DNA of 46,916 nt from Aduncisulcus paluster (GCA_024181965.1 BQXS01013858.1:1-46916), one strand, 5' to 3'. Positions 4,220 through 37,046 are shown, counted from the stretch's first letter. The notes: generated by a model not told the origin, from the sequence alone. Translations and numbers: made by a program.

Positions 4220-7200
4220 ATGAATGTATTCTATTCCTCTGAATCTGCTAGAATATCGGTCAATGAAATCTCATCATTATCAGTCCAATCACAAAGTTCC
4301 AGTGCAAAAAAATATTCTAGACGTAATTCAAATTCGAGTATTCATCAACATAGACGTACAGCTACCCAAAAAATCTTGAATGGATTCTTTTTTCTAAAAC
4401 AGCGAGTTGTCTCCCCTCTGATTTTTTTAATTTTTATGCTAATGTTCGAAAATTTTCAGATAAATAGTATTATTTTATCCCTTGTTAGCCATGATACTAA
4501 TCGTATTCGAGCATTTGTCCCTTTTTTCTCTAATCTGTGTCTCTTCTCTATTCGGGAGGGAGATAGCCCTTCTTCATATTTGGTACCATTTTTATATTTA
4601 TTATTCTTTCCGTTATTTGATGTCTTCTTGCTTCTTTGGTCTGTAAATAAGAAGAATCTTTATCTTTTGGATTACTCCATGTCCGCGAAGGTTCTTTTAT
4701 CTTATCTATCTTCTTTTGCCTTTTTCACTCCCAGATTTGCATTTTATCCTCTTCTATTTGTTTCAACCCGGCTTACAGTGGTAGATGCTGCGAGAGAAAT
4801 TAGCGGAGAGCCTCTTGTTTTTCGTATTCTGGTTATTATAGCGAGTGTTTTTGTCATTTTTCTCCTCTTATTTTTGAAGTTTTTTTATAGCGCCTTCTTT
4901 TTTAATCCACAGTTGAATGATTTCCCAAGTCACCATCGAGTGTTGGCCAGGGACGATGCCATAGTTTTTGCTCTGTATTGTGTCGGATTTTTCTTGGCAT
5001 GGCATCTTCGATTATATTCATCTCTTATAGTTGTGATTTTCTGCTGCATTTCTATCATATGCTTCCTCGTAAAACTATTGAGCTGCTCTTACTATTCTAT
5101 GTGTATCAATATTTTAGAGGCTGGATTTCAAATGCAGATATGTTTGGGTGCACTAATTATACTACCATATCTCTCTTTTGTGGAACATTCCTTTTCATTG
5201 CCCAATTTTTCCCTTATGTTTGCTATATTTTCCTGCTTGGGAATGATTCTTGGTTCAGGGATTTGTTATTTCTGTCAAAAATCAAAACAAAATCGGTTAT
5301 TCCAGTGTATATCTTTTTCTGTTGATCATCTTTCAAAGAATTTGAAGAAATCGGGACGCAAATCACGTTCTATTCAGATCAAGTCGGAAATTTCGCATTC
5401 TTCAAATGTTCATTCAGGGAAAGATATACCAAATCATCAAGAAACCGTAGATATCAATGCAGATTCGTCATCCAAAAAGAGCCAACAGTATCATGCCAAG
5501 AAACATGGGGTAGTAACTTGGGGAGAAATTTGTTCAAACCGATCTAAAAATAGAACTAAAGAGGATAAATCTGTAGAGCATGATGACGGACACTTTTCAG
5601 TATCCTCTGAGCTTGAAGAGACCAATTCCACTGATGATACTGATAGTTCTTATGATGAAGATGCTGAATCAACAAGAAAACAACATACAGGCAAAGGAAA
5701 GATAATGCATCACTCGTACACTCATCACCCTTCTCCAACTTTGTCTGAGTTACAGGTTGAAGTCCAACAGCTTGAAAAAACTGTCACAATGACACATGGT
5801 GATGCATTGATTGATCAAGAGAAAGAAACTATTTATGCAACTGAAAGGGGAAATGCATCCAAGAAAAATGAGGGATCCTTGAATTTACCTCAGAATGGAA
5901 TAATCAGCAACATTCAAGGTAGATCGGTTCCTCCTCTCTCTGACTCTCTTCCATTGGTGTTCAGACAGATATTATCAAAATGTCCATTTCGTATTCTTGA
6001 TACCACCATTTCTGTGGCCAGGGCAAAGAGAGAGTTGCTAGGTCTTCGTGTTGTTGATCAAGGGAAGAAAGAAACAAAACAAATTAAGAATGCTTCAAAG
6101 AATTCGATCTTGGTATCTCGATCATTTCTCAGATTTGATACGCCAAATAACTTTATTATTTCAATGTTGCCACTCTTGCTTCTAATTCGTGTTTTGCATG
6201 TTCTGAAGCTTCGGTGTGAAACCAAGGGAGATGGTCGTGTGAATATTGATACTGAAAATGCAGAACTATGTTCATATTCCATGCTCCCCCCGATTTCTCA
6301 ATGTGGTTGTTCATCTTCCTTTTCCATCGCCTTTTCGAATGCTTGCTCGTTTGCATGTGCCCTTTATGAGATAGCTTTGGGTGTTTTCCCGAAGCATTCT
6401 CTTCTTATTTCACATTATTGTGTCTTTTTGAACTCATTCCTCCCTGAAAGAGCCATTCTTTACTTGCGAAAGACTCAAGAAGACAAATTGAACATGCCAA
6501 TTGACATTCAGACAATCGTATATTCTGTTCATGAGCTTCACAAACTTTCTCAAATCCGTTCTAAATCTGTAGGGTTTACAAAATATGGTAAGACTCTCCG
6601 CAAACTTCGAAATAGAGTGTCCTTGGGTGTCTCACAACTGAAAAATATGTGGGAGATTTTTTTAGATGCTTCAATCGAGCGAGAACAAGTCAAATTGAAT
6701 CGTAAGAATCGGGCCAAACCCGCTCCATCCAAAATTTTGGGAGATATGAATCCAAGAAGTGCTGATTCGATGAATCCTGTTCCTTATCTTCCCACAATGA
6801 TGTCAAGTTTGAGTTATTCTGGAAGGAAAAGAGTGAAGAATTCTCTATTTCTTGACCCATCTGGCCTTCTTCTTGATGGAGAATCCAACGTTAATGCGGT
6901 CAAAATATCAAAATTCGGATCCAATTCAAGATCTGTCAAAGATGAGATCACTGAAGTTATTTCATCGTCTTTCAAATCTTCAACTCCATCTAAGGAAGTT
7001 AGTGCTGTCATTCTTATTCGTAGAGATTTGAGAAGGAAAGTGAAATCCCTTATGTATGATCTTGCTCAAACGATGGAATATCTTGATGATACATTCAACT
7101 TGCTTCTTAGAAAGGCCACTCCAGGACTTTTAAGAGGATATGGACAGTATATCATGTGCATTTGTGGAGATATCGATGGTGCGCATAGATATTTCTCACG

Positions 7201-10200
7201 AAGCCTCACTCTCGACCAGGAAAAGGATAAAGTCGCCAATGTTACGCCACGTTTGTCTATTCCAGCTTTTTGGAAGGAGTTGATGGGTTCCAGCGGTCAA
7301 AATGTCGAGGAATATGTTGTCCGTGAATGTTCTTCCATTTGTAATGGTGAAATAGATTTCAAACACTCAAGTTTGATAAGAAGGTTGGAGCATGCATTTG
7401 GAACGAAGCGTTTAAATTATAGTCTTTGGTGCTCTGCATTTGTCTTTGGGAGTATTTCTTTGTTTGTTGGCATTTTCTTTGGGACAACAGCTGATGTCGT
7501 GCAGACAATGTATGATATTTCACATCAACTCAGTATGACCTTTATGTTGATGGAAATTACAAGTGTTAATCTTCATTCGGTATTATTTCGAAGAGATTTA
7601 ATATATAATTCAATGATTGCAGCGATTTCTTTGACATCAACCCAAGGTGTCTATAGAGATTATTCAATTGAAGAAACTGCAACAAGGGAATTAATGGCAT
7701 CGTTGGGCAGTATTTATCGTGGAATTCAATCATTCTCGGACACAACCGAGTATTCATATCAAGTTAGTCTGGTGCAACTTGTTGGCGTTCGGCCGGCCAG
7801 GAAAAAATTCTATTTCTCACCATTGGGTCGCAATGTCTTTTTTTCTCCTTCCCTCGATTTATATATTTGCAGTTACCTTGGTGAGGATGTCATTCCAAGT
7901 ATTGATTGGACACCCACAGATTTGGAACAACTATCTGGTTTCCTTGATAGTCCTTGTGTATCAACGAACTCAAGCCTTGCTGTTTTAGTCAATTCTTGTC
8001 TTCTTGATGTGATTGATTACTTTAGCTCACCCGACAATATGCTTCTTGGATATTTCGATCAGTTTAATAATGATTTCCCCGACCAAGAATTTCTTCTAAA
8101 CCTCACTCAACCATTGTCGGGTGATATCGTGTTTCAAACTCACTTGAAGAATTTGAATGATTCCATTATGCCTGCAATGAAAGATGTTTTGTTTGAAAGG
8201 TCATTATATGTGTCTGAGTCCATCTCTGTAGTGATTGTTTCATTCATATTCTTTGTTGTCCTTTCTATTGTTCTGCTCATTTTGTTCTATGTTCGTTGTG
8301 TGTTCAAACCTATTACGGGTTATTTCCAACGTATTGAACTGTACATGAGTCTTTTGTTCAATCTGCCTTCCGAAACAGCTCTGCAGATATACAGGTCTAT
8401 TGGACAGAGAGCTCGGGCTGTTGATCTCAAAGGGACTGGTTCCAACTTATTTTTTGATCCCAATCGTCGAAGTTCGCTCTCTGAACGAAGTGATTTTGAA
8501 GTCACAGGGTCTGTTATGTCTTCAATCCATACTGTCACTTCAATGACTCACTCCCTATCCATCTCCACGGTCGATGGAATGGATCGCTGTGCTCCAAGTG
8601 ATATGAATGAATCCGATGATCTGACTGATATTGCATCGGACAAACCCAATCATCTTATTTCGATTGAGAGCCCAATATCGATTCGTCAAGATTATGCTGC
8701 TCATTCCATTTCATCGAATAGGACCAATCATAATTCAGGATCCATTGTTGTCGATTCGACCAGATCACCTTCGAAAGCTTCTGAACAAATGGGTTCAATG
8801 AGATTAATAGGTTCCAATCATGATGTGAGTGGATCAAGCGGTCAGTTGGCTCCCGATCATCCCTCGACNNNNNNNNNNNNNNNNNNNNTTGAGAGCCCAA
8901 TATCGATTCGTCAAGATTATGCTGCTCATTCCATTTCATCGAATAGGACCAATCATAATTCAGGATCCATTGTTGTCGATTCGACCAGATCACCTTCGAA
9001 AGCTTCTGAACAAATGGGTTCAATGAGATTAATAGGTTCCAATCATGATGTGAGTGGATCAAGCGGTCAGTTGGCTCCCGATCATCCCTCGACAACGAGT
9101 AGTCGAAGCCTTCTCTACTCGACGAGTTCTTCCACTGTCGATGTCACTGCAATCTCTCAGAAGGAAGCTTTGACGACAGTTTTAAGTAATGGAGCTCCTA
9201 TTTCGTCTCTTTTGGTTGATCCATTCTCAGACGATTCTGATGATCCTGTGAAGAAGAAGAAGAAGAAGAAGAAAAAGAAAACGAAACCCGAAAAACACTT
9301 AGAAGATGATATGTCATCCAAATCATTGAAAAATGAAAGTTATAATGGTGGTTCTCCTTATATGGAATCTGTTCTTGGTTCCTCGAGACAAAAATCATTG
9401 CCAATGCCTCACATTTTGCCCTCTTATGAATCTCAATACTCTGTGTCATCTCACTTTTCTTCTCCAGTAACTCCATTAACATCAAAGGCCAGCAAACAAG
9501 TTTCTCGGTCTCCAATCTTAGATCAAGTTCTCCTCCAGCCAAGTACATCTTCTGTTTCATTTGAGTTTGGATCCCCTGTTGTCGAGAACGTTGATGTGGC
9601 ACAAATGCGTGATGAATCCACTCATGAGTCAACAGCTTTTGCAAAACCATCGTCGGTGTCAACCATCTTTGAGCCTATTAAAGACGATCAGATGGAGAGA
9701 ACTGTTGATTTGTCTCAGAAAGACGATCAGAATGCTATGGGTCAAGCTATTCGTGGAATCGATGAACCTTCTGCACCCGTATCTATTGTTAGTAATTCGT
9801 CACGTATTTGCCGGGTTGATTTTTCCTCAATTTCATCTTCATGTGAGTCAAGTTCCTTTAATTTGTTAAAACAGGAACAAAACTTATCTTCATTTCTGAA
9901 AGTATTGTTTAAACGATTCAATGGTGCTTCATTGTGGATATTCATCATCTATTTGGTTGCTCTTATCGTTATTGGGATAATAGGATTGTTCTATCTCCTC
10001 CAGTTAAAGGATATTTCCTACGATTTTCATCTCACTGATCAGACAAAGGTTCTTGTTGTGGAAATATATGACTATGCTTCTCGTCTTACTGCCTGTGAAA
10101 TTGGACAATTATCTCGGTATCACAGTGAATTATGTCGTAAACGGGAGGTTAAACATCTTCGTGCTTCTATTGATGTGTTTCGGGAAGAGTATTTTAGGTT

Positions 10201-10753
10201 TTCAATAGGGGATGAAAATGTTGGATCTGTTGCTGATCGATTTCCAGCCATCAATGACTGGTTATATCAGCCACAGTGCTTATCACTGTTGTATAGTAAT
10301 TGTGAGGAGAGTGAACAACTTGTCATGAATGATCTGGTGGAAGAATATCTTTATTATGCCGAATTAGTTCTTGAAAAAGATGATGTCTTGCCTGATTATG
10401 AAGGATTTCAGTATTTGAATGGAACAAATCGACTCGCTTTGACGAGTGGTTTCTATTATTTGCATGATATTATTCAAGAAGAAATTGAATCAAAAAGCTC
10501 TTATTTTTATGCTGTTAAAATTATATTTTTGTGCATTGTTTTGATATTTCCAATTTCTTTTATTATTGTTACAAAACATGAAAAAGTGAAGGAATGCCTT
10601 GCTCAAAGGAATCTCTTGTTCACGACCTGGTCAATGCTTCCCTTGGATTCAGCTCCAATTCTTGTCAAAGAGGGGAAAGATATTCTTATCTTACTCCTGT
10701 TTATGAAATATTTGAATATTCGACGGCTGCAAAACTTTGAATCTGACTTTTGA
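4220..10753 (+). CDS. Giant multi-pass membrane protein, tiny-macrocysts TmcB/TmcC-like (about 2102 aa after removing the 225-bp artefact)
   Basis: N-terminal cluster of about 8-9 hydrophobic segments, TPR-like helices (LYEIALGVFPKHSLLISHYCVFL; PGLLRGYGQYIMCICGDIDGAHRYF), then two TM-loop-TM modules separated by Ser-rich linkers. Architecture matches my recollection of the TmcB/C family. Confidence 0.6.
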   Translation: MNVFYSSESARISVNEISSLSVQSQSSSAKKYSRRNSNSSIHQHRRTATQKILNGFFFLKQRVVSPLIFLIFMLMFENFQINSIILSLVSHDTNRIRAFVPFFSNLCLFSIREGDSPSSYLVPFLYLLFFPLFDVFLLLWSVNKKNLYLLDYSMSAKVLLSYLSSFAFFTPRFAFYPLLFVSTRLTVVDAAREISGEPLVFRILVIIASVFVIFLLLFLKFFYSAFFFNPQLNDFPSHHRVLARDDAIVFALYCVGFFLAWHLRLYSSLIVVIFCCISIICFLVKLLSCSYYSMCINILEAGFQMQICLGALIILPYLSFVEHSFSLPNFSLMFAIFSCLGMILGSGICYFCQKSKQNRLFQCISFSVDHLSKNLKKSGRKSRSIQIKSEISHSSNVHSGKDIPNHQETVDINADSSSKKSQQYHAKKHGVVTWGEICSNRSKNRTKEDKSVEHDDGHFSVSSELEETNSTDDTDSSYDEDAESTRKQHTGKGKIMHHSYTHHPSPTLSELQVEVQQLEKTVTMTHGDALIDQEKETIYATERGNASKKNEGSLNLPQNGIISNIQGRSVPPLSDSLPLVFRQILSKCPFRILDTTISVARAKRELLGLRVVDQGKKETKQIKNASKNSILVSRSFLRFDTPNNFIISMLPLLLLIRVLHVLKLRCETKGDGRVNIDTENAELCSYSMLPPISQCGCSSSFSIAFSNACSFACALYEIALGVFPKHSLLISHYCVFLNSFLPERAILYLRKTQEDKLNMPIDIQTIVYSVHELHKLSQIRSKSVGFTKYGKTLRKLRNRVSLGVSQLKNMWEIFLDASIEREQVKLNRKNRAKPAPSKILGDMNPRSADSMNPVPYLPTMMSSLSYSGRKRVKNSLFLDPSGLLLDGESNVNAVKISKFGSNSRSVKDEITEVISSSFKSSTPSKEVSAVILIRRDLRRKVKSLMYDLAQTMEYLDDTFNLLLRKATPGLLRGYGQYIMCICGDIDGAHRYFSRSLTLDQEKDKVANVTPRLSIPAFWKELMGSSGQNVEEYVVRECSSICNGEIDFKHSSLIRRLEHAFGTKRLNYSLWCSAFVFGSISLFVGIFFGTTADVVQTMYDISHQLSMTFMLMEITSVNLHSVLFRRDLIYNSMIAAISLTSTQGVYRDYSIEETATRELMASLGSIYRGIQSFSDTTEYSYQVSLVQLVGVRPARKKFYFSPLGRNVFFSPSLDLYICSYLGEDVIPSIDWTPTDLEQLSGFLDSPCVSTNSSLAVLVNSCLLDVIDYFSSPDNMLLGYFDQFNNDFPDQEFLLNLTQPLSGDIVFQTHLKNLNDSIMPAMKDVLFERSLYVSESISVVIVSFIFFVVLSIVLLILFYVRCVFKPITGYFQRIELYMSLLFNLPSETALQIYRSIGQRARAVDLKGTGSNLFFDPNRRSSLSERSDFEVTGSVMSSIHTVTSMTHSLSISTVDGMDRCAPSDMNESDDLTDIASDKPNHLISIESPISIRQDYAAHSISSNRTNHNSGSIVVDSTRSPSKASEQMGSMRLIGSNHDVSGSSGQLAPDHPSXXXXXXXXESPISIRQDYAAHSISSNRTNHNSGSIVVDSTRSPSKASEQMGSMRLIGSNHDVSGSSGQLAPDHPSTTSSRSLLYSTSSSTVDVTAISQKEALTTVLSNGAPISSLLVDPFSDDSDDPVKKKKKKKKKKTKPEKHLEDDMSSKSLKNESYNGGSPYMESVLGSSRQKSLPMPHILPSYESQYSVSSHFSSPVTPLTSKASKQVSRSPILDQVLLQPSTSSVSFEFGSPVVENVDVAQMRDESTHESTAFAKPSSVSTIFEPIKDDQMERTVDLSQKDDQNAMGQAIRGIDEPSAPVSIVSNSSRICRVDFSSISSSCESSSFNLLKQEQNLSSFLKVLFKRFNGASLWIFIIYLVALIVIGIIGLFYLLQLKDISYDFHLTDQTKVLVVEIYDYASRLTACEIGQLSRYHSELCRKREVKHLRASIDVFREEYFRFSIGDENVGSVADRFPAINDWLYQPQCLSLLYSNCEESEQLVMNDLVEEYLYYAELVLEKDDVLPDYEGFQYLNGTNRLALTSGFYYLHDIIQEEIESKSSYFYAVKIIFLCIVLIFPISFIIVTKHEKVKECLAQRNLLFTTWSMLPLDSAPILVKEGKDILILLLFMKYLNIRRLQNFESDF
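8664..9093. repeat. Gap-flanking duplication 8664..8868 = 8889..9093 (assembly overlap)
   Basis: Identical 205-bp copies either side of N8869-8888; offset 225. Confidence 0.9.
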
Positions 10754-11432
10754 AATATGTTTCTTTTCTGTATTAATTTTTATTTCTATTTATATTTTGA
10801 ATTAATTATTTCTATTTTATCTATTATGTTTATTTTACTTGTTTTGGTATTGATTTGTTTTATTTTTGTTGTTATTGATGTTTCTTTGGTTTTTGTTGCT
10901 TTAAATTTTATATTTGAACTGAAATCATTGCATATCTGGTTTGACTTTTACGTATATCGTCAGTTTGATCAATCTTGATTTTTGTCATATTATGGGTGTC
11001 TTCTCATCCTTACATTTTTTTAATATCAAATAGTTTATATTAATTGATATTTTTTACAGTATTTCTCGTGCTTTTCCATTTTTAATTTCATAAAACGTCC
11101 TATATTGTTCCAAAAACACAGAATTTGTGTGGGCTTAATTCTTTTTGTGTTTTAATTTCCTTATATCCTGCATTTCTTTCCAGCTTTCTACTTTGTTTAC
11201 GAAATTAACGGAACGTCAACTCTTCTCTTGTGATGGCCACCTACTCTATCCTATAAATCTACAAATTCAATAAAATTGTCTCAAATATTGCTGTGCTGGA
11301 TCAATAATAGGAGATATCTTAACTATAGAAATTGGATTCATTATCAATTGAAGGATCAATATTCAAGTAAAGATAATCATACGATTCATTCTTAATTTAA
11401 TTCATTTGTTTAAAGCATTGCAAAGTTCAAAA

Positions 11433-14400
11433 TCACACTTGGCTATCCCATTTTGAGACAGATGGAACACACATCTCAGATGCCAATACTGATCCGATAT
11501 CTCCACCATATTTGTGTCTTTGACAAGTAATAATATCCTCAATTCGCGGGCATATCCAACCTTCTCCAAGTTTTGGAAGGAAACCCTTGATGGATTGAAC
11601 CTTTTTACATGCATTATGCACACTCATACGATCGTCAAGGCTTTTAGCAGTCAAGCCAGTATATACTAAATTTAAACATGTGTGTACTGGTTTATATTTC
11701 CCACCATCAATACTAAGAAGGGACTCAAATAGTGGAGAATTCGACAGTTTCGGAATCATATCGTGTTCAAGGAGAAACAATAATTTTTCAATGAGTTGAA
11801 GAGAGGAAACGACACCACGAAGTGTTGGATGTCCAATAAATGGAGGTAAACATGTGAACAATGCGAGAATTGACATTCCAAGGGAATATGCATCGCTTAA
11901 TTGAGTTTGGTGACCCTCTTTCAAGGATTCATAAGAGTTATAAACGAAAGTTCCGCATAAATCACCATTATCTTCCATAGGTTTCCTTGCAACAGAGCCT
12001 TTGGAAGATACAAATGCCTTGGATGTATGAGAAGAAGATATCGAGTCTTGAATCTGAACAAATCCTAGATCACCAAGAATCACAACACATTCTAAACTCT
12101 TGGGATCAACTCTGACGAGAAAGTTGTCAGGTTTTATATCTCGATGAACGAGTTTTGGTTTGGCTGTGAAAACTTCATCAAGACACTCAATCATGGCAAC
12201 ACAAAGAGCACATACTTTGACGGGATTCAATTGAAGAGAGTTAAAAGGCTTTGCTAATGAAGAAGAACTACACGTATCGCATGATGAGGTAGTTGTAGAG
12301 GTAGAAACATATACTGAAGAATCACTTTCACAATCATCAGAAGAGCCAGCAAGTGATCTCCGACAAATTCCATCATCACACCAGCTCTTTGAAAAAGACG
12401 CAACACTACCTCCAAGACAAAATTCCATGCAAAATCCATACACACCACGGTAGTTTTCATCAAAAAGATCAAGAATATACAAGGGACGAGGAATACGGCA
12501 GTAACATTTGGGAGAATTAAATAGCTTTCGTTGGGTCTTGAATTCATGACGACAACTCTTAACAACGTATTTATCTGCAGTTCTTAGCATCTTCTTAAAC
12601 ACACACGGTTGTTTGAGCCCTTGAACCTCAACAAGGAGAACCTGACCAAATTCCCCTTCACCAATAATGCACAGAGATCTTATGTCAGCTTCAGAAGTCA
12701 AAGTCATCGAATCTTCCTTCCTTTTATGTTCCCCAGGTGCACTAATTGTGACATATGGCGAACCTGGAACAACACTACTTGAAGATAGAGTGGATGAAAC
12801 TTCATCTGAAACTGATATAGGTTTGGTATTCAATTGTGTTTTCTCCTGGATTACACCCAATTTGGCCAGTTTTGCTTCATGTTTCCTTCTTTTCTTTTCA
12901 AATTTCTCTTTCTTCTTGTCTATTTTCTCCCTTTTTAGTGACCGTCTTTTAAGTTCTCTTCTTTTCACCTTTTCTGTAATTTTTCTTAGTTTTTCCTCTT
13001 GTTTCTTCTNNNNNNNNNNNNNNNNNNNNCCCAGACCTTTCAAATTTTCAAACAGATCACGAACCTCTTGAGGAATCTCATCAGCAGAGGCTTTCAGAGT
13101 CTGTATAAGGGCCTGTAACTGATTTCCGATAGTATCCTTGCCAAACAAAAGCTTGTCCAGCATAGCAAGATTTTGAACCGNNNNNNNNNNNNNNNNNNNN
13201 TGACGACAACTCTTAACAACGTATTTATCTGCAGTTCTTAGCATCTTCTTAAACACACACGGTTGTTTGAGCCCTTGAACCTCAACAAGGAGAACCTGAC
13301 CAAATTCCCCTTCACCAATAATGCACAGAGATCTTATGTCAGCTTCAGAAGTCAAAGTCATCGAATCTTCCTTCCTTTTATGTTCCCCAGGTGCACTAAT
13401 TGTGACATATGGCGAACCTGGAACAACACTACTTGAAGATAGAGTGGATGAAACTTCATCTGAAACTGATATAGGTTTGGTATTCAATTGTGTTTTCTCC
13501 TGGATTACACCCAATTTGGCCAGTTTTGCTTCATGTTTCCTTCTTTTCTTTTCAAATTTCTCTTTCTTCTTGTCTATTTTCTCCCTTTTTAGTGACCGTC
13601 TTTTAAGTTCTCTTCTTTTCACCTTTTCTGTAATTTTTCTTAGTTTTTCCTCTTGTTTCTTCTTTTTTTCTTCTCCTTTCCTCCTCTCTTTTTCCACTTT
13701 CACCCTTTTTTCTGCCAGTTCCTTCATTTCAATGGCTGCTTTCATCTCTTCGGTCAAAGGTTTTCTCGTCCCTTTAAAAATGAGTAAACCGACAAGGATA
13801 AATACAAAACATATGGAAAACATACAAAATAGTAAGGAATAAATACTGTGCAAGAAGAAAAAGGCCAAAAACAGACAAGAAATAGTGGAACCAACAAAAA
13901 GACAAGAAAGCAGAGGATTCAAGAGAACAGACTTTTCTATATTTGGAATCTTTGAGAAATAATGTTCTTGATAATATTTCCATCCAGCTCCTGTGAAAAA
14001 CGATAATATAACCCCAATTGAAATGGGAATCATGATTGAAAAATCCCATTCTCGAAATGAAGAATAATACGTAATTAACGGGATAAATACAAGAGGAATT
14101 GAACATATCGAAGCCAGAATCATGAATCCACCATGAATTATTTCAGTTCCAAATCGATCAAGTAAGGTATTGACAGAATCATCAGCGAGAGAAGTAATAC
14201 AAAAGAAGGCTGATATGATACTGATTCCAAAGTAATTCCATCTCACAATAACATTAGAATGGATGTAAAAGGATATAAACAGAGTGAATGAGACACAGAA
14301 TAGAACTAAAAATAGAGCAAAACAAGTCGGTGTGAATAAAAATAGTCTCTTGGATATTTGAGAATGAATATATATAAATCCGGATGCACCCATGATGAAT

Positions 14401-15845
14401 AAACAAACAGAACAAATGGATAATAGCCACTGTAAAGACCTTTGATGGATAAATACAACCATACTGGTGAAAACGATCGAAGGAATGATTAAAAATGAAG
14501 TCAAAATACCGACTCTCGCCCTTTTGAGATAAGTGATATAAAATAAAACCATGATAGGGATCGATCCAAGAATTGATCCAATAACAATTCCAGCATTAGA
14601 TTCTTTAAAGAAGCCAATGATGATAATAACAAATCCAGGGATCATAAAAAGCATAGACATCGTACATATTATGCGGTTTTCAGCTCTAAAATACTTGTAT
14701 AATACAATATAAAGTGTGATAAGACAGCNNNNNNNNNNNNNNNNNNNNATGATTAAAAATGAAGTCAAAATACCGACTCTCGCCCTTTTGAGATAAGTGA
14801 TATAAAATAAAACCATGATAGGGATCGATCCAAGAATTGATCCAATAACAATTCCAGCATTAGATTCTTTAAAGAAGCAAATGATGATAATAACAAATCC
14901 AGGGATCATAAAAAGCATAGACATCGTACATATTATGCGGTTTTCAGCTCTAAAATACTTGTATAATACAATATAAAGTGTGATAAGACAGCCAACAAAA
15001 CCTGAAAGAATCATTGTTATATTCTTCGATCTTATACCAATAATAAGGGAAAAAAGAGAAGAAATGCCAAAGATAAATGGAAAGATGGGCTTAATTTTTT
15101 GATAATTTATCGGGAATGTCATCACAATAGCAAATATGCCAGCAATCACAGGGAATATGAGGAAATAATAGTTTGAAAACAATCCGAACGATAGAGAAAG
15201 GCCAAGAACAAAGAAAGAAAGTCCAAATAAAATCCCAATTCCAGGATGACCCTTCAATTTGGGAGTATTACAAGAAGCAACCAAGAAGTAAATTAAATTC
15301 ACCACACCAGCAATAATTCCACAGCAAACGTATATATACATGCTTGTATACTCATATTGTAATGCATTATCAAATGAATATGGTTTGTAAAGAGATGACA
15401 AAATGAGAGGGAAAGATATTAAGGAGGTGCCAGCGATGAATGAAGAATTAATATTGCTACAAAAACAACCAATATTAACATAATTTTCTTTGGTACACGA
15501 TGGAAAACAAGAATGTAAACAAGGACGAACGAAATATATAAATCCCAATGCAATTAGAGGCCAAGAAAGAAAATACAGAACAGAAAAGAATATCACAACA
15601 CTATTCACAGGGAATAATAGGTCAGCTTTGCTCTCAACAAAGCTTATACGAATGTTACCAAGGGAGTTGGAATCAATATCTGTTGTAGTTGCTGGTGAAT
15701 AGGTACTTTCTGTCGGCTTGTCTAAAACACCAATATGAAAGGTACCATCACTAATTGAAAGGGAAAATGGGTATAAATAAAAAACACAAATGAGAAATAT
15801 AGCATAAAATGAGCCTGAAGTCTTGTGCGAAGTAGGAATAAACAT
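11433..15845 (-). CDS. Polytopic membrane protein with C-terminal Ser/Thr kinase (about 1164 aa after collapsing artefacts)
   Basis: About 17-18 hydrophobic segments, a K/E/R coiled coil, then a kinase: IGEGEFGQV, CVFKK, HRDIKPDN, DLG, CGTFVYNSYE, SDAYSLG. Confidence 0.9.
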   Translation of the reverse strand: MFIPTSHKTSGSFYAIFLICVFYLYPFSLSISDGTFHIGVLDKPTESTYSPATTTDIDSNSLGNIRISFVESKADLLFPVNSVVIFFSVLYFLSWPLIALGFIYFVRPCLHSCFPSCTKENYVNIGCFCSNINSSFIAGTSLISFPLILSSLYKPYSFDNALQYEYTSMYIYVCCGIIAGVVNLIYFLVASCNTPKLKGHPGIGILFGLSFFVLGLSLSFGLFSNYYFLIFPVIAGIFAIVMTFPINYQKIKPIFPFIFGISSLFSLIIGIRSKNITMILSGFVGCLITLYIVLYKYFRAENRIICTMSMLFMIPGFVIIIICFFKESNAGIVIGSILGSIPIMVLFYITYLKRARVGILTSFLIXXXXXXXXCLITLYIVLYKYFRAENRIICTMSMLFMIPGFVIIIIGFFKESNAGIVIGSILGSIPIMVLFYITYLKRARVGILTSFLIIPSIVFTSMVVFIHQRSLQWLLSICSVCLFIMGASGFIYIHSQISKRLFLFTPTCFALFLVLFCVSFTLFISFYIHSNVIVRWNYFGISIISAFFCITSLADDSVNTLLDRFGTEIIHGGFMILASICSIPLVFIPLITYYSSFREWDFSIMIPISIGVILSFFTGAGWKYYQEHYFSKIPNIEKSVLLNPLLSCLFVGSTISCLFLAFFFLHSIYSLLFCMFSICFVFILVGLLIFKGTRKPLTEEMKAAIEMKELAEKRVKVEKERRKGEEKKKKQEEKLRKITEKVKRRELKRRSLKREKIDKKKEKFEKKRRKHEAKLAKLGVIQEKTQLNTKPISVSDEVSSTLSSSSVVPGSPYVTISAPGEHKRKEDSMTLTSEADIRSLCIIGEGEFGQVLLVEVQGLKQPCVFKKMLRTADKYVVKSCRXXXXXXXXVQNLAMLDKLLFGKDTIGNQLQALIQTLKASADEIPQEVRDLFENLKGLXXXXXXXXKKQEEKLRKITEKVKRRELKRRSLKREKIDKKKEKFEKKRRKHEAKLAKLGVIQEKTQLNTKPISVSDEVSSTLSSSSVVPGSPYVTISAPGEHKRKEDSMTLTSEADIRSLCIIGEGEFGQVLLVEVQGLKQPCVFKKMLRTADKYVVKSCRHEFKTQRKLFNSPKCYCRIPRPLYILDLFDENYRGVYGFCMEFCLGGSVASFSKSWCDDGICRRSLAGSSDDCESDSSVYVSTSTTTSSCDTCSSSSLAKPFNSLQLNPVKVCALCVAMIECLDEVFTAKPKLVHRDIKPDNFLVRVDPKSLECVVILGDLGFVQIQDSISSSHTSKAFVSSKGSVARKPMEDNGDLCGTFVYNSYESLKEGHQTQLSDAYSLGMSILALFTCLPPFIGHPTLRGVVSSLQLIEKLLFLLEHDMIPKLSNSPLFESLLSIDGGKYKPVHTCLNLVYTGLTAKSLDDRMSVHNACKKVQSIKGFLPKLGEGWICPRIEDIITCQRHKYGGDIGSVLASEMCVPSVSKWDSQV
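12547..13663. repeat. Gap-flanking duplication 12547..13009 = 13201..13663, with a foreign 151-bp fragment (13030..13180) between
   Basis: Offset 654; N runs at 13010-13029 and 13181-13200. Confidence 0.9.
14485..14992. repeat. Gap-flanking duplication 14485..14728 = 14749..14992
   Basis: Offset 264; one mismatch seen (C14615 vs A14879, Gly vs Cys). Confidence 0.9.
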
Positions 15846-16099
15846 GAAAATTCTATTCTTTCAATCAGTGAGTCACAAGGTCAAATGAAAATAAAACAAG
15901 AAAGTAAAAATAATATATTACAAATTTCTTGTATTATTATTTTGTCGACTCAATCAAAACACGATGATGTCAAAAAACAGAAGATTCGTATCAACATGAT
16001 TCAAAAATACACCCGAAAGTGAATAAATTAATCAATAAACCTTATATAAGTTATTTTTTTTTATTATTTATTCAGGATGCCAATTCAACAGGCCATTGG

Positions 16100-16751
16100 A
16101 TCTATGACAATTAAATAAAAGATAATCACTGTCACAGTGTCATATTTGGACGGTCCAAATATGAATGGGTTAATCTATTTATCTTTCTTCTCCCTCTTTC
16201 TCTTCCGTTTCTCAGCATCGATGGCCTTCAAATCCTCAGTGAAATCAATATCAGGCTTCCTTCTCTTTCCTCTCCCTACACCTTCCTTTTCAGCTTTCTT
16301 GGCCATTTCATCGAACTTTTTCTTGTCGTCTGTACCCATATCCTTAACAGATGGCTCACTAACCTCTTCACTATCCTCAGAGGCCTCAAAGCTAGCATTG
16401 TCGCTGTCTTGACTANNNNNNNNNNNNNNNNNNNNATCTATGACAATTAAATAAAAGATAATCACTGTCACAGTGTCATATTTGGACGGTCCAAATATGA
16501 ATGGGTTAATCTATTTATCTTTCTTCTCCCTCTTTCTCTTCCGTTTCTCAGCATCGATGGCCTTCAAATCCTCAGTGAAATCAATATCAGGCTTCCTTCT
16601 CTTTCCTCTCCCTACACCTTCCTTTTCAGCTTTCTTGGCCATTTCATCGAACTTTTTCTTGTCGTCTGTACCCATATCCTTAACAGATGGCTCACTAACC
16701 TCTTCACTATCCTCAGAGGCCTCAAAGCTAGCATTGTCGCTGTCTTGACTA
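16100..16751. repeat. Gap-flanking duplication 16100..16415 = 16436..16751 (3' end of SSRP1)
   Basis: Offset 336 across N16416-16435. Confidence 0.9.
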
Positions 16752-18316
16752 TCCTGACTATCTTCATCATCTCCCATGTCTCCCACAGCACTCTCGATGA
16801 TAGCAGTTGGTGTGTGTGTGTTCTTGAAGTGAGCAGCGCCGACCATTTTCTTCATCTGTTTGTCCAGAGCCATACTGTAAACATCCCGAATATCAGAAAA
16901 CTCATACTTCTCTTTCTTGGTAATGACAGTCAAGCTAATGCGAGTTGCTTTGGAGACAGCGTTTATCCCGGAGCTCAGTTGAATGTGGTTAATGTCCTTC
17001 TTGGGAATGATTATCACTGGCTTGCACACAAAGAGGAGATAGTCATCGAGGGGGAACAGATGACCCTGATTTTTCTCATACACGCAACGAACACTCTGAT
17101 GGACACCTTCTGGGGGGTCAAGAGCCTTGTCAGGACGAGGAGCAATGCCTCTCGAAGTGACTGCGAAGGATCCAGGAACAATAACACCACCTCCGTCTCC
17201 CTTCTTGCGTTGTTCAGTCACAGCAAGCAAAAGAGCAGCATATACACGGACAGCGTCGTCACTGAATCTGGTGGGGAGTCCATATTTCTTCTGAATTGCA
17301 GAGTCACACATGATTGTTGTGTTGAGACGCTCTCCACGTTTGATCGAGATGATTAAAGATGTGAAGGTCGTCTTGTTTTTCATGACAGGTTCCTTGAGGG
17401 AGATAATGAAAGCATACTCATCTGAAGGCATAAGGACAGTGAACATCTTCCCAATATTGGTGTATTTAACGACAAAGGTGTGCGTAGAACCACGGAAACG
17501 GAGGGTAATACCACTGAATGTCACTTCGTACTGCCCGCGGGGATGCAATAACTTTGTCTTGGGGAAGGTGGCTATCACAGATCCCTTGGCTTCATCAGTC
17601 TTGCATCGTCCAGCAAGAATCTTCTCAAGGATCTCAGCGGGGGTGTAAGTCTCGGATCTGACCAAACCAGGAGGAATATAGAACCGGATATCAGTAAGAG
17701 TATGAGGTTTATCACTACTGGTCTTCAAAGGGGCAGTCTTGAGAGATATCTCGTTATTATTGGCAGAAACACCGGCGATATAGGCCAAAGGAATCCTTAA
17801 AACCTCCTCAGTGTGTGGAACACCAGCAGTTCCTTTGATTGAGTGATCGAAAACGACATCTTCTCTATCTATTTTAACATCACCCCAATTCCAACCACGG
17901 AGAGATAAACTCACATCTTGGCTTCCATCAACACCTCCAAAAGAAATCGAATTCTTCTTGAAGAACTCATTTAAATGTCCTTTATCAGCAAGCTGAAAAC
18001 CAGTGAAATGAACATCCCAAGATTCTTGATGAGTCTTTAAAAACTCTTTAGTATGTTTTTCTTTAAGTTCTGGTGGAATTCCTTCATCGACTTCACGATA
18101 TACGCAATCTTCTTTCAAACGAAGGCGAAGCTGATAACAATCATGATCACGCCCATCAAGCTTTCCTAAATTAGTCCAACCAACAGTATCAATTTTATCC
18201 ACGGGGATAAATCTCTTTTTACCTGTTTCAGAACATCTCCACCCAATCTTTTGGTTAGAAATGACGAAATCACCTCTTTTCGCATCAGTATAAATATTTT
18301 TCACGGCCGAAATCAT
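16511..18316 (-). CDS. SSRP1: FACT complex subunit SSRP1/Pob3
   Basis: N-terminal NIY...G.F.I....IGW, hallmark LRGWNWG, DIRFYIP, PRGQYEV, GHLFPLD..LLFVCKP, YEFSDI, acidic tail. First ATG at 18316 (the track starts at an upstream TTG). Confidence 0.92.
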   Translation of the reverse strand: MISAVKNIYTDAKRGDFVISNQKIGWRCSETGKKRFIPVDKIDTVGWTNLGKLDGRDHDCYQLRLRLKEDCVYREVDEGIPPELKEKHTKEFLKTHQESWDVHFTGFQLADKGHLNEFFKKNSISFGGVDGSQDVSLSLRGWNWGDVKIDREDVVFDHSIKGTAGVPHTEEVLRIPLAYIAGVSANNNEISLKTAPLKTSSDKPHTLTDIRFYIPPGLVRSETYTPAEILEKILAGRCKTDEAKGSVIATFPKTKLLHPRGQYEVTFSGITLRFRGSTHTFVVKYTNIGKMFTVLMPSDEYAFIISLKEPVMKNKTTFTSLIISIKRGERLNTTIMCDSAIQKKYGLPTRFSDDAVRVYAALLLAVTEQRKKGDGGGVIVPGSFAVTSRGIAPRPDKALDPPEGVHQSVRCVYEKNQGHLFPLDDYLLFVCKPVIIIPKKDINHIQLSSGINAVSKATRISLTVITKKEKYEFSDIRDVYSMALDKQMKKMVGAAHFKNTHTPTAIIESAVGDMGDDEDSQDSQDSDNASFEASEDSEEVSEPSVKDMGTDDKKKFDEMAKKAEKEGVGRGKRRKPDIDFTEDLKAIDAEKRKRKREKKDK

Positions 18317-18643
18317 TATAAGATAAGAAAGAATCAAAAATACCTTAAAAAGTTATTCTTGGTCAAGGAAAAACGAATTAGTGGATTTTGATTTTATTAT
18401 TCCAAATCGAGTGCATAAAAAAGGTTGTTCTGAATAAAAAACTATAATAAATATTAAATAAATGGAAGGGAAGAACATATTACTCCGCCAAAGCATTATG
18501 TTGGCCACCAGGTAATCATCGACTCAAAAAGCGGATACAAAGAATCTCTCTCAAAGGATTACTCTATAATTATTTATAATTGAATTGTGTTATCATGATA
18601 TTATCAAATAAATGATCACATGTGGATCATTTCCCCCAATATT

Positions 18644-31536: not shown

Positions 31537-34500
31537 TCAACCTCCAACGCTATGTGAATGAGTGCGTAATGGAGTCGATGCAGATATTGAAGAAAAAGAC
31601 AATGAAGATGGACAATAGGTAGAAGAGTAAGAAGATCCTAATGGAATAAGGGGAGGTTGTTCTGATAGCACGGAACCACTATCACCCTCATACTTGAGTA
31701 ATTGTTGCCGTATAACTTCCTCAATAGATGGACATCTCCAGCCTTCCCCAACAGAAGGGAGAAACTCCTTGATTTCTTGGATTCTCTCCCTTGCAATGGC
31801 TGTGGTCATCCGTTTGTGGATATCTTTCTCAGTCAGACCAGAATAGATATCTTCAAGACAATCATGTATTTTTCTTCCACCAGGATGATCCTTGAGTGAG
31901 GTAAAGATAGGAAAGTTTGTAATTGATGGCATGCGATGTCTTTCCATTATCGTGATAAGCCTTTCAATGAAGAGAGAAGGATCTTCAATGCCTCTGAGAA
32001 GAGGATGACCGTACAATGGACTCTCATTGGAAAAAAGAGAAAGAATGGTCATACCTAAACTGTAGGCATCACCTGCTTGCGAATGGAATCCTTCATTCAA
32101 GGCTTCATAAGAATTGTACACAAAAGTCCCACACAAGGCGAAATGAGATAGAGTTTTTTCTGATGAAATCGAGGAAGAATGAGACTCAGACATCGTGGTT
32201 TTTGAGCAGAGAATTGAAGATACCGTATCTTGAATCTGAAGTAAGCCAAGATCACCAAGGACAACAGTGCATTTGCTCGTGGCTGGATCAACACGAACAA
32301 GGAAGTTCTCAGGTTTAATATCTCGATGAACCAATGAGTCAGGTTGAGCACGGAAGACATCGTCAAGACACTCGATCATTGCAACACAGAGAGAAGCAAT
32401 CTTCAAAGAATCAAACGAACGAACGGTTGAATGTGATATTTCGGATTCAGAAGTATCTTGACATCCTTGAGCAGTAGGTTCAACAACAGCCCAACTCCGA
32501 GCAAAGGATCTTACACTTCCACCTGCACAATATTCCATCATGAATCCAAACACGCCTTCCAAATTAGCATTCATACAGTTTAGAATACAAAGAGGACGAG
32601 GTATACGAGAGAAACATTGTGGGTGCATGAATAATCGAAGTTGAGCCCTAAATTCTTTCTTACAGCTCCGTAGCACAGTTTTCTCCCCTATTTTGAGCAT
32701 TTTCTTGAGTACACATGGAGTTTCCATTCCTTCCATTTTCACTAACAAAACCTCTCCAAATGCACCACTTCCAAGGATACACAATGGAGTCAATACCCTG
32801 GGCGATGTGATGGTGGTTGACCGTATCCGTGTAGATATATCGACTGTGGATGACTCTCCATCCTCGTCAATCAGGTTCGAATGTTGGAATTTTCCTCGAT
32901 GCGAAAGATAAAATTGTGATTTTTTCTCATGGCGTTCTCTTCTCTCTGACTCTTTCTTTGTCTCTCGAACGAGTCTTAAAGCCTCAACGTGGCACCATTT
33001 CTCCCATTTCCATGAGCACATGCACTCCATTTCACATGATACAATATCACTGATATGTACAGGGAGGACAAACCACTCATACTCAAGCTGTGGAACCAGA
33101 GAAGAATGAGAAGAATGAGAAGAATTGGAAGCAACCCTTTGGATTCTATGTATGTTTGACATAGTGAAGCCATTCTTAAGATGAAAAGAGATACGAAGAC
33201 ATTGAGGTTGTGTTGATAGCGAGTTCACACACAAATGAATGCATTTAAGGTTCTGAGCGGTTGAAAAGGGGAAAAACAATTTATGAAATGTAATAGATCG
33301 CCTTCCAGAGAGAAAAGATTTCAAATCCAACCCCCTTTTCAGTGATTCTGACTCAATATCGCCCAAATCCACCTTCATCTTGCTTGTATGAATTTTAACA
33401 GATCTTTTCCATTTTTCAAACCGACCTAAAGTCTTTGTACTTCTCCCTCCCTTCATGAGGAATTTGGCACGAATCATATCATCGCCGAGTCGTTGCATGC
33501 TCAATATTGTTTTCCTTCTTGCCGCAAGCAATTCTCTTTGGGAAGTAGTCAAGCGATGTTGCATTACATTCCTCTGGTAGATATCATGATGGATTGGCCA
33601 AGCCCCATGTAGGGCACACCACTCCATATGAACATCATATTTGGGGCATAAAAACTGAACGAGACACGGGATATTGGAAAAAGAAGCAATTAGTTTTGAC
33701 CAATTTCTAATTCCCCACTCATCTCCCTCAGCCTTAAACACCTCATACCAATCATCGAGGAATATCGCTAAAGAGGCATGCAATTTAACAGAATATTCCT
33801 CGACACAGCAGAAATGAGCAACTAAAGCCACCAAATGCTTGATAACCATGATACCCTCATTAACAAACACACCACGAATTGGAGAAGAGAGTTTCTCGAT
33901 TGTAGGAAACAAAGAGACGCATCTGTGTTGACATGGGCTCCAATCATCCTCGGAAAGGGTAATGTTATGCAATATAACCAACCATTTCCCAACGAATGAA
34001 CTTGACGGATATATTTCAAACCATCTGAGGATATTTGGTTGAATTGTGTCCAAGATCTCATCTCTAATTGAATTATCCAAAATGGAAGAGAGGTTTCCAA
34101 GTAATGTTAATATTTTAAGAAAAAGCTCAGGTCCAGGGAAATTCTCCCCAGAATCAAGAGTAAGCAATGTAAATAATGAATCTTTAATCTTTTTAAACAC
34201 TTGAGCTCGTTCGTCAACATTGAAATATGAATAATTTGTACATAAATGGTATATCCACTCAGAAGCAGCCAATCCAAGTGATTTCTCGATTCGAAGCAAA
34301 TGATCAATAAACTTATCAAATAATAGCCCCATTTTTTCCTTTGAGAGAAAGATGGTGGTTTGATCGGGCCCAAAACTTCCTACCCAGAAGGCTAGGCATT
34401 TGCAGCACATGAGGAGTTCATTTCTAAAATCAGTGATTTGTTCTGGGAGGGTCTTGGTCCTAAACGTCTCCAAAATCATAAAGTGATATTTTTCAAAGAG

Positions 34501-35715
34501 GATTTCCTTCTGTCCTGACGTTGCGCAAACGATTTGAGCACATAAATCCACATAAAAAGAAAATTCCTCAGATTCTTTTGTAGATTTGACATGTAATCCA
34601 CTTGCCTGTGAAGCAAACAACGCAGATTTCTCCGATATTCCAAGGATAGATTCTTCACACCAGACCATTTTTTCGTGCAAGGAACGAAGCTTATCACTGA
34701 AATCAGGAACTACAACAACTCTTACGTCTTCCTCTTCCTTCTCTTCCTCTCCCTTCTCTTCCTCTTCTTCCATTTTTGGGTCAGAAAGAGTCATGTGGAA
34801 TTGTTTAACTAGTCCATACCAATAATTAATACCTTTCGAAGCTACGATCTCACCTTCTCGATGATAATACTGAAGGGACTCAAACCACTCACTTAACGAT
34901 TCAAAGACCTCACTAAAAATAGTCTGTGTGCGCTCAAAAGATGAACAAAGATAAAAAAACAAAATTAGTACGTGAGACACACTAATGAAGGATTTACCAG
35001 AAAACATTGATTGAATGACATGGAATAATGGCACAAAAATGGAAAATATCTTATTGATTCGTAATTTACGCGATGAATCATCACTTGAAGGCTTCACTAG
35101 ATTACAGAGGGTGGTGATGATGGAAGAAATGTAAGTTGTGTAGGTCTCAATCCATCCAACAAGATGTGGATGAATGACATCGATTAGCGCATCGAGAATA
35201 AGCGTGTGAGGAGAATTTGAAATAAGTTCGCAGCAAGATAAAACGTGAAATACAAGATCAGGTTTTAATCTTTCTTCAGTACCTTTATCAAGGATACAAG
35301 AAAGAGAATCTGACATAAAATCCAAGGCCCGTTTTGTGATATCGACTGACATCAAATATTTATGAATAATACCATAAAGCCACTGACTTATGGAGAGACC
35401 AAGAACATGTTCGCAATTAATCATGGGAATGATAAATAAATTAACTAATTGATTAAGATAAGGAATTTTAAAATCATCTTTTCGATGAACACCCGCCAAT
35501 TTCGATATTAATTCACACAGGAGAACGATTCTCTCACTATCCTGGAAAATCTTCTCAGCGGAATTATTATGCTTAAAAATTGTCATAGCGGCTGCATTAT
35601 ATGTTTGATATATATGGTTTACCTCTTCAAATGATGCGGATTTCAGTAATAAAAGTAACGCACGAATCTGAAGAGTAGATAACAGTTCGTCACTGGAAAT
35701 AATTGGAATTTCCAT
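31537..35715 (-). CDS. Ser/Thr kinase with two N-terminal helical repeat units and a beta-rich domain (1392 aa)
   Basis: LGSGAFGEV, CVLKK, HRDIKPEN, DLG, CGTFVYNSYE, GDAYSLG; kinase domain clearly paralogous to 11433..15845. Confidence 0.92.
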   Translation of the reverse strand: MEIPIISSDELLSTLQIRALLLLLKSASFEEVNHIYQTYNAAAMTIFKHNNSAEKIFQDSERIVLLCELISKLAGVHRKDDFKIPYLNQLVNLFIIPMINCEHVLGLSISQWLYGIIHKYLMSVDITKRALDFMSDSLSCILDKGTEERLKPDLVFHVLSCCELISNSPHTLILDALIDVIHPHLVGWIETYTTYISSIITTLCNLVKPSSDDSSRKLRINKIFSIFVPLFHVIQSMFSGKSFISVSHVLILFFYLCSSFERTQTIFSEVFESLSEWFESLQYYHREGEIVASKGINYWYGLVKQFHMTLSDPKMEEEEEKGEEEKEEEDVRVVVVPDFSDKLRSLHEKMVWCEESILGISEKSALFASQASGLHVKSTKESEEFSFYVDLCAQIVCATSGQKEILFEKYHFMILETFRTKTLPEQITDFRNELLMCCKCLAFWVGSFGPDQTTIFLSKEKMGLLFDKFIDHLLRIEKSLGLAASEWIYHLCTNYSYFNVDERAQVFKKIKDSLFTLLTLDSGENFPGPELFLKILTLLGNLSSILDNSIRDEILDTIQPNILRWFEIYPSSSFVGKWLVILHNITLSEDDWSPCQHRCVSLFPTIEKLSSPIRGVFVNEGIMVIKHLVALVAHFCCVEEYSVKLHASLAIFLDDWYEVFKAEGDEWGIRNWSKLIASFSNIPCLVQFLCPKYDVHMEWCALHGAWPIHHDIYQRNVMQHRLTTSQRELLAARRKTILSMQRLGDDMIRAKFLMKGGRSTKTLGRFEKWKRSVKIHTSKMKVDLGDIESESLKRGLDLKSFLSGRRSITFHKLFFPFSTAQNLKCIHLCVNSLSTQPQCLRISFHLKNGFTMSNIHRIQRVASNSSHSSHSSLVPQLEYEWFVLPVHISDIVSCEMECMCSWKWEKWCHVEALRLVRETKKESERRERHEKKSQFYLSHRGKFQHSNLIDEDGESSTVDISTRIRSTTITSPRVLTPLCILGSGAFGEVLLVKMEGMETPCVLKKMLKIGEKTVLRSCKKEFRAQLRLFMHPQCFSRIPRPLCILNCMNANLEGVFGFMMEYCAGGSVRSFARSWAVVEPTAQGCQDTSESEISHSTVRSFDSLKIASLCVAMIECLDDVFRAQPDSLVHRDIKPENFLVRVDPATSKCTVVLGDLGLLQIQDTVSSILCSKTTMSESHSSSISSEKTLSHFALCGTFVYNSYEALNEGFHSQAGDAYSLGMTILSLFSNESPLYGHPLLRGIEDPSLFIERLITIMERHRMPSITNFPIFTSLKDHPGGRKIHDCLEDIYSGLTEKDIHKRMTTAIARERIQEIKEFLPSVGEGWRCPSIEEVIRQQLLKYEGDSGSVLSEQPPLIPLGSSYSSTYCPSSLSFSSISASTPLRTHSHSVGG

Positions 35716-36810: not shown

Positions 36811-37046
36811 TTTAGAGATCAACTCTGTAGCAAAACAGAGAAAAGAAAATGACAAGCTGCTTTCTCTTCAAAATCATTTTAAATTGTGTCGCTATCAATG
36901 AAAAAAACAAAAACAGTTACAAAATATAATAGTATCAATATTCTTTGAAGGTAATTCCAGTTTCTCCGCGGTAGAAATTCGTCAGATTATGATTTAGTGT
37001 TTCTATACCTTCTCGATATGATTTATTGGTCCAACCAATATGTAGT

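Follow-up and report, generated by a model that had tools for sequence, protein, structure and literature searches.

An orphan polytopic membrane domain recurrently fused to an apparently active Ser/Thr protein kinase in the free-living fornicate Aduncisulcus paluster

The locus described here raises the question whether one protein joins a membrane domain of about 17 helices to a Ser/Thr protein kinase, and what the membrane part would be doing in such a protein. It lies on a scaffold of 46,916 nucleotides (nt) from Aduncisulcus paluster (BQXS01013858.1 of assembly GCA_024181965.1), which was analysed as a whole and is called the window in the following. A. paluster is a free-living fornicate and a relative of Giardia. 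An open reading frame (ORF) on the minus strand of the window, from 11433 to 15845, had been read in an earlier note as a receptor-like kinase with many membrane helices and as a candidate for an undescribed signalling architecture. We find that this ORF is one real, intron-free gene that encodes an integral membrane Ser/Thr protein kinase of 1164 residues.

As scaffolded, the ORF counts 1470 codons, compared with 1164 for the collapsed gene. The A. paluster genome was published without a kinase analysis, as a draft assembled by MaSuRCA from short reads that totals 29.4 Mb and has an N50 of 4.6 kb (PMC9933649). Runs of 20 N occur nine times in the window. Three of these gaps lie inside the ORF, at 13010-13029, 13181-13200 and 14729-14748, and sequence flanking them is present twice: 12547-13009 is identical to 13201-13663 (463 nt, 0 mismatches), and 14485-14728 copies 14749-14992 (244 nt, 1 mismatch). 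Between the two lower gaps sits an island of 151 nt (13030-13180) that has no other copy in the window and is in frame by chance. Two stretches, neither assigned to a strand, are assembly artefacts according to the duplicate comparison and the read contigs discussed below: 12547-13200, with the 463-nt copy, two gaps and the foreign island, and 14485-14748, with the 244-nt copy and one gap. Collapsing the duplicates by script leaves 3495 nt, equal to 1164 residues and a stop, which is the length predicted in the earlier note, and the collapsed frame is open over all 1164 codons. The copies of the second overlap differ at one base, 14615 C versus 14879 A on the plus strand, which gives Gly or Cys at residue 323; the RNA-like read set X2 introduced below has C. 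It is probably an allelic difference, because of which the two contig ends were left unmerged in the assembly. The gap duplicates inflated the protein by 306 residues and split the annotation into two partial entries, and the gene is publicly filed as two partial hypothetical proteins (P0001 and P0055) under one locus tag.

The same pattern is observed elsewhere in the window. At the gaps 8869, 13010/13181, 14729, 16416 and 43693, the 188-463 nt before the gap recur after it with 0-1 mismatches. These repeats are uncollapsed contig overlaps; they inflate the ORFs 4220-10753, 11433-15845 and 43566-46916 and truncate a SSRP1/POB3-like gene at 16511-18337.

Read-level evidence comes from Logan contigs of two public runs, compared over 11200-16100: X1, which is DNA, and X2, which is RNA by the tool's guess. 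One X1 contig of 5863 nt covers 11200-16033 with exactly two joints, at which 654 and 264 nt are skipped. These are exactly the duplicated stretches, so the collapse is supported by reads and the 1164-codon gene is contiguous. The 151-nt island forms a separate X1 contig with a depth of 2.7, compared with 1309 for the surrounding gene, and is foreign to it. In X2, contig 9 (1017 nt) follows the gene from 13923 to 13201 and continues from 12546 to 12253, corresponding to residues 553-892 with helices 16-17, the linker and the N-lobe of the kinase. Further X2 contigs cover 11392-12152, 14772-15025, 15499-15715 and 15741-15914, the last of which includes 69 nt of sequence before the ATG. Every one of them is collinear with the genomic DNA, hence no intron is seen. 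Two traits of X2 are RNA-like, namely a loose contig end with poly(A) at 11285 and a depth that ranges from 1 to 1773 across neighbouring stretches. The X2 contigs thus weakly support one low-abundance transcript. Of a single transcript through membrane part and kinase, the stretch over residues 553-892 is bridged by RNA-like sequence, while the membrane region before it is covered in part.

These data bear directly on the possibility that neighbouring genes or paralogues were joined by mis-assembly or read-through and that no fused protein is made. The scaffold invites this explanation, as it comes from a draft built of short reads and, within the very same ORF, has three gaps, duplicated sequence beside them and 151 nt of foreign origin; X1, moreover, may be the assembly's own data. 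The junction in question, from helix 17 through the linker to the Gly loop, is nevertheless located within a single gap-free stretch (13201-14728), an independently built contig runs across the entire gene, the RNA-like contig bridges the junction, and 1164 codons are read without a stop. Moreover, the fusion recurs at no fewer than four other loci, and two of these, P0054 and P0068, lie on other contigs and show it without internal duplicates. The mis-join that the earlier note had named as its refutation is not found; we regard a joining artefact as largely refuted and very improbable.

The C-terminal part of the protein is a protein kinase. Its start (residues 746-794, 13201-13346, minus strand) carries the Gly loop and the beta-3 Lys. 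The remainder (residues 795-1110, 11598-12546, minus strand) carries a Ser/Cys-rich insert, HRD, DLG, a Ser-rich activation segment, SYE, DAYSLG and Arg 1100. It is followed by a family-specific conserved tail (residues 1111-1164) and the stop codon, together at 11433-11597 on the minus strand. The Pfam profile Pkinase (PF00069) matches at E 6.7e-14, and its score of 52.3 bits lies above the cut-off of 31.7. In the numbering of the collapsed protein, the motifs are GEGEFG at 756-761, VFKK at 776-779, HRD at 928-930 and DLG at 953-955; SYE replaces APE at 998-1000, as in most of the family, DAYSLG stands at 1012-1017, and the Arg of subdomain XI is residue 1100. The alpha-C Glu is placed by eye from the alignment in HEFK, and HRDIKPDN, starting at 928, is of the Ser/Thr type. 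The kinase therefore has the intact Gly loop, Lys, HRD and DxG that had been reported for it and, judged by its motifs, retains all catalytic residues and is probably active. The domain is divergent, as a single-sequence phmmer search of PDB with the window kinase alone gives no match. A profile built from eight family members reaches 568 PDB kinase sequences at E<=1e-3, with best matches to STK38 (NDR), CDPK, RIPK1 and HRI, all at about E 1e-10, and the family fits no classical kinase group clearly.

Upstream of the kinase, the protein is dominated by hydrophobic segments. The helix count was obtained by Kyte-Doolittle hydropathy with a 19-residue window, a home-made procedure and not a trained predictor, which yields 16 segments at a threshold of 1.7 and 18 at 1.5 within residues 1-612. 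The 18 segments comprise a signal-peptide-like one at residues 11-31 (15753-15815, minus strand), with Lys in its n-region and small residues before Asp32, and 17 helices between residues 76 and 603. The latter form the polytopic membrane domain (13773-15620, minus strand, a span that includes the redundant 14485-14748). The proposed signal segment and about 17 further stretches with short loops are thus borne out at this level. For comparison, DSSP counts about 11 membrane-length helices in an AlphaFold model of residues 285-609, a model with a predicted local distance difference test score (pLDDT) of 47.3. Loops are 4-32 residues long, except for an acidic N-terminal stretch of 51 residues, and few charged residues are found within the helices. 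Loops on the kinase side hold 18 Lys and Arg, those on the opposite side 9, and the linker 46. This excess on the kinase side, together with the basic linker, suggests that the N-terminus is outside and the kinase is cytosolic, a topology that fits the simple charge count. With about 17 helices and an extracytosolic stretch of at most about 51 residues, the protein is no single-pass receptor kinase of the receptor tyrosine kinase, receptor-like kinase or receptor Ser/Thr kinase (RTK/RLK/STKR) kind. The label "receptor-like" is therefore loose, as there is no ectodomain.

Membrane domain and kinase are separated by a predicted cytosolic linker (residues 604-745, 13347-13772, minus strand), of which the first approximately 95 residues are rich in Lys, Glu and Arg and helix-prone, and the rest is Ser-rich. 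A sample of 159 residues (602-760) contains 32 Lys, 14 Arg, 24 Glu and 4 Asp. The segment had been described as a charged coiled coil. Its charge is confirmed (46 basic and 28 acidic residues), and it may form a coiled coil or a single charged helix or be disordered. Hydrophobic spacing, judged by eye, is irregular, and the linker is a variable low-complexity spacer that is unconserved in paralogues. The linkers of the family are unrelated: the one of the window protein is K/E-rich, P0054 has EPS repeats, both P0068 and P0080 have PK repeats, and in P0025 an acidic part is followed by a basic one.

How widespread is this kinase? An exhaustive HMMER search of protein databases with the C-terminal 524 residues finds 212 cluster representatives at E<=1e-3, of which 105 reach E<=1e-30. 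An open frame of 1164 codons with 105 representatives at the latter threshold is more than a chance ORF. The relatives range from 98 to 3335 residues in length, with a kinase-domain identity of 45-61%; many entries are fragments, so the family count is approximate. Names were checked for 30 among the 150 matches listed. All 26 sampled matches at E<=5e-21 belong to A. paluster, and none of the 4 at E>=1e-12 does, three being from oribatid mites and one being an unnamed protein. Within the present content of the databases, the kinase represents a species-restricted expansion. The tail motif VQSIK..LP..GEGW.CP and the blocks MIECLD, HRDIKPDNFLVR and SDAYSLG are conserved in all eight aligned members. 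A metagenome scan with the kinase alignment returned 108 pattern matches, none of which was confirmed as a relative. The window itself contains a second family member at 31537-35715 (minus strand, 1392 residues, identical to P0041), with its kinase domain at residues 980-1306 and a non-polytopic N-terminal region.

In most of the family, the N-terminal region is of another, non-membrane kind. Among the 150 matches listed, six have at least six hydrophobic segments: P0055, which is the window's own entry, P0025, P0054, P0068, P0080 and P0037. P0037 does not match a profile of the membrane domain, and this profile finds no further member among 151 proteins. The fusion, 14-17 helices before the same kinase, is accordingly seen at five loci, namely the window, P0025, P0054, P0068 and P0080/P0151. 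P0025 at first appears to have 21 helices, a number raised by two exact repeats within its sequence, 133 and 132 residues long; these are the same kind of assembly artefact as in the window, here present in a database entry, and de-duplicated P0025 has about 15 helices and a signal peptide. Since at least four other loci show a collinear domain before the same kinase, the fusion is recurrent. The membrane regions of the five loci align collinearly at 16-24% identity and share the blocks FIAG, G.I.G..N.I, LFG[ED]..F and SGW[KR].Y. Gly, Pro and Asn are conserved inside helices, and a Pro-rich helix follows the amphipathic LFG[ED]..F element. Pairwise comparison, with E-values that refer to a set of six sequences, gives 1e-9 for the window and P0025, 9e-11 for P0025 and P0068 and 7e-15 for P0054 and P0080; the window is not significantly similar to P0054 or to P0068.

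Whether the fusion arose once is addressed by kinase trees. FastTree on 63 kinase rows requires two changes of the label "polytopic". A quick IQ-TREE run on 51 rows requires three, and the approximately unbiased (AU) test does not reject one clade (p 0.249); this run left out 12 long-branch or fragmentary rows (P0066, P0073, P0074, P0075, P0078, P0081, P0096, P0105, P0107, P0111, P0115 and P0123). Two to three label changes and this p value are compatible with one fusion event as well as with several. A single origin is the simpler reading, as suggested by the homology of the membrane domains. The kinase has not been kept intact at every locus: P0068 has FCD for HRD and Lys for the Asn of the catalytic loop and has lost the alpha-C Glu position, which makes it a probable membrane pseudokinase.

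Low conservation raises the possibility that the membrane domain is a passive anchor or targeting module, which fixes the kinase in a membrane (e.g. flagellar, groove or endomembrane) and senses nothing, with regulation left to cytosolic inputs. An identity of 16-24%, a variable helix number, unrelated flexible linkers and the missing ectodomain would all be expected of it, and the non-membrane N-termini in most of the family suggest modular targeting domains. For anchoring, however, one helix or a lipid anchor would suffice, a signal peptide with 17 helices is costly to make, and 14-17 collinear helices with shared motifs are kept at five loci. Retention of this many helices, with conserved Gly, Pro and Asn, at such low identity argues that the domain is more than an anchor, and we consider the passive role rather unlikely.

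We next consider whether the membrane domain belongs to a described family. The membrane pieces have no match in Pfam (at E<=0.01 for those of the window protein and at E<=1 for those of its paralogues), the 7TM families of G protein-coupled receptors (GPCR) included. The alignment of the membrane domain has none in a profile search of NCBIfam or PDB (E<=1), and the ESM Atlas has no usable match for either piece. By sequence, no transporter or channel family is found in Pfam, NCBIfam, PDB profiles or the Atlas, and within the limits of these tools the match to a described family that would have contradicted the earlier note does not appear. Word-indexed searches are less informative. With the whole ORF, this insensitive method gives no match. 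With membrane alignment A1 against proteins of 840-2395 residues, P0025 alone is found, and the known P0054 and P0068 are missed. With alignment A3 against proteins of 106-839 residues, nothing is found, and the known P0055, P0080 and P0151 are missed. Because known members are missed, absence of the domain elsewhere is not demonstrated by these searches, and the exhaustive HMMER search was made with the kinase piece, not with the membrane domain. The domain forms a small orphan family, found so far only in fusion to this kinase at five loci.

Structure prediction does not assign a fold. AlphaFold with a six-row alignment gives a pLDDT of 47.3 and a predicted template modelling score (pTM) of 0.28 for residues 285-609 of the window protein, and 47.1 and 0.33 for the whole membrane domain of P0054. 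A Foldseek search of PDB with the latter model has a best E of 0.34 and a template modelling score (TM-score) of about 0.2, values that are meaningless at such model quality. Internal repeats in the membrane domain were considered and rejected, as they trace to the two exact assembly duplicates of P0025 (132-133 residues).

In a further alternative, the 17-helix domain is a new transporter or channel family, and the kinase reports or regulates flux, as in channel-kinases. Such a transceptor or "chanzyme" would account for the transporter-like size and helix count, for the Gly, Pro and Asn conserved inside helices together with the amphipathic element before the Pro-rich helix, and for retention of the domain through deep divergence of the paralogues. 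It is opposed by the searches of Pfam, NCBIfam and PDB sequences, in which no family of transporters or channels is matched, by the Foldseek result, obtained on a low-confidence model, by the lack of a detected internal repeat beyond the P0025 duplicates, by the scarcity of charged residues in the helices and by a helix number that varies among paralogues. We judge this alternative to have a minor share of the probability.

We lean slightly towards a membrane-embedded kinase in which the polytopic domain would serve as an intramembrane sensing or localising module. The role of a sensor or transceptor proposed in the earlier note is plausible. Several observations weigh against the reading preferred here. 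X1 is possibly the assembly's own data. The library type of X2 is unstated in its record, the RNA label being the tool's guess, and X2 depth over the gene is 1-7, compared with 130-1770 on its neighbours, with parts of the membrane region uncovered. The helix count stems from a home-made hydropathy scan. Homology of the window domain to those of P0054 and P0068 is linked through P0025. The membrane domain is poorly conserved and varies between 14 and 17 helices, and a loosely constrained anchor would show the same. With AlphaFold models of low confidence, no fold supports a sensing pocket. The loss of HRD in P0068 indicates that some members may signal without catalysis.

If the domain is such an intramembrane module, it would act within the membrane, either as a sensor of a lipid, of a small solute or of the state of the membrane itself, or by placing the enzyme in a particular membrane. 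Without an ectodomain, any input would have to be read inside the bilayer or at very short loops. The linkers are flexible, of low complexity and not conserved, which favours control of the kinase by tethering and clustering over rigid helix-to-helix coupling, so that the former is probably at work. A likely site of autophosphorylation would be the Ser-rich activation segment.

By Pfam, the neighbouring genes in the window include a SSRP1/POB3-like FACT subunit (16511-18337, minus strand), an aldo/keto reductase (35890-36855, minus strand), an aldehyde dehydrogenase (39151-40761, minus strand) and a kinesin (43713-46916, plus strand). Six of ten further ORFs in the window (319-1616 residues) have no Pfam match at E<=1e-4. 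The left neighbour of the kinase gene, at 4220-10753 on the plus strand, is an orphan ORF of about 2100 residues that has many hydrophobic segments and whose first 1549 residues match no Pfam family. An X2 contig of 645 nt with a depth of about 250 covers 10663-11285 and has its poly(A) end at 11285 on the plus strand, 532 nt past the stop of this ORF. It could be a long 3' untranslated region or a small, highly expressed, unannotated transcript.

Large polytopic domains are joined to cytosolic enzymes in the TRPM6/7 channel-kinases, in a mycobacterial fusion of MviN (MurJ-like) to a pseudokinase and in the P4-ATPase-guanylate cyclases of alveolates. In these proteins a known transport family is combined with an alpha-kinase, a pseudokinase or a cyclase, whereas the window protein combines an orphan domain with a probably active eukaryotic protein kinase (ePK). 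They are analogues, and none is a relative.

Among membrane-bound ePKs, the available text of two surveys describes an overwhelming majority of single-pass proteins, with exceptions of up to nine helices or with a 7TM GPCR domain (PMC10463195, PMC3019232). According to the first, protist transmembrane kinases (TMKs) are mainly Ser/Thr/Tyr kinases with one and His kinases with six transmembrane segments, and 7TM GPCR-kinases occur in oomycetes, ciliates and amoebae; its main text uses neither "multi-pass" nor "polytopic" (PMC10463195). The GPCR-kinase bigrams resemble the window protein in that a polytopic sensory domain precedes the kinase in a lineage-specific combination. They have a recognisable 7TM domain, in contrast to the window protein, which matches no 7TM or other Pfam family and has more than twice as many helices (PMC10463195, in the text available). 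For Phytophthora infestans, the available part of the second survey reports ePKs with one to nine predicted helices (PMC3019232). Its multi-TM receptor-like kinases of the tyrosine kinase-like (TKL) group are similar in that a signal peptide or anchor is combined with several helices and with a cytosolic ePK from a lineage-expanded clade, and some are almost without an extracellular part, like the window protein. They differ by their one to nine helices and by their TKL affiliation, compared with about 17 helices, an orphan domain and no clear group here (PMC3019232). DesK, as far as the available text describes it, offers a functional analogy, since it has no ectodomain and a multi-helix membrane part that reads the state of the bilayer; this bacterial five-helix His kinase relies on rigid helical coupling, unlike an ePK with about 17 helices and a long flexible linker (PMC8301901).

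In the literature searched, no ePK with more than nine helices is found, although Table S4 and Fig. S3 of PMC10463195, which give the helix counts of 22,321 TMKs, could contain one. Within the available text of these sources, in which ePKs of one to nine helices and 7TM GPCR-kinases are described, an architecture of 14-17 helices is new, in line with the proposal of an undescribed one. The coupling of a 14-17-helix orphan domain to a Ser/Thr kinase that is apparently active extends the known range of connections between membranes and phosphorylation in eukaryotes.

For Giardia, the available text of the kinome study reports that receptor kinases are lacking and that none of the kinases has a clear signal peptide (PMC3218828). 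Both organisms belong to the Fornicata and show a large lineage-specific kinase expansion, and they differ in that A. paluster has at least five polytopic membrane kinases (PMC3218828 for Giardia, same text). It is conceivable, if rather improbable, that the domain represents an unknown family of transporters, channels or intramembrane ligand sensors coupled directly to an active ePK, in other words a genuine transceptor kinase, which emerged among free-living fornicates and is lacking in related parasites, Giardia being one of them. The contrast between the two organisms is consistent with a loss of environmental sensing during the transition to parasitism.

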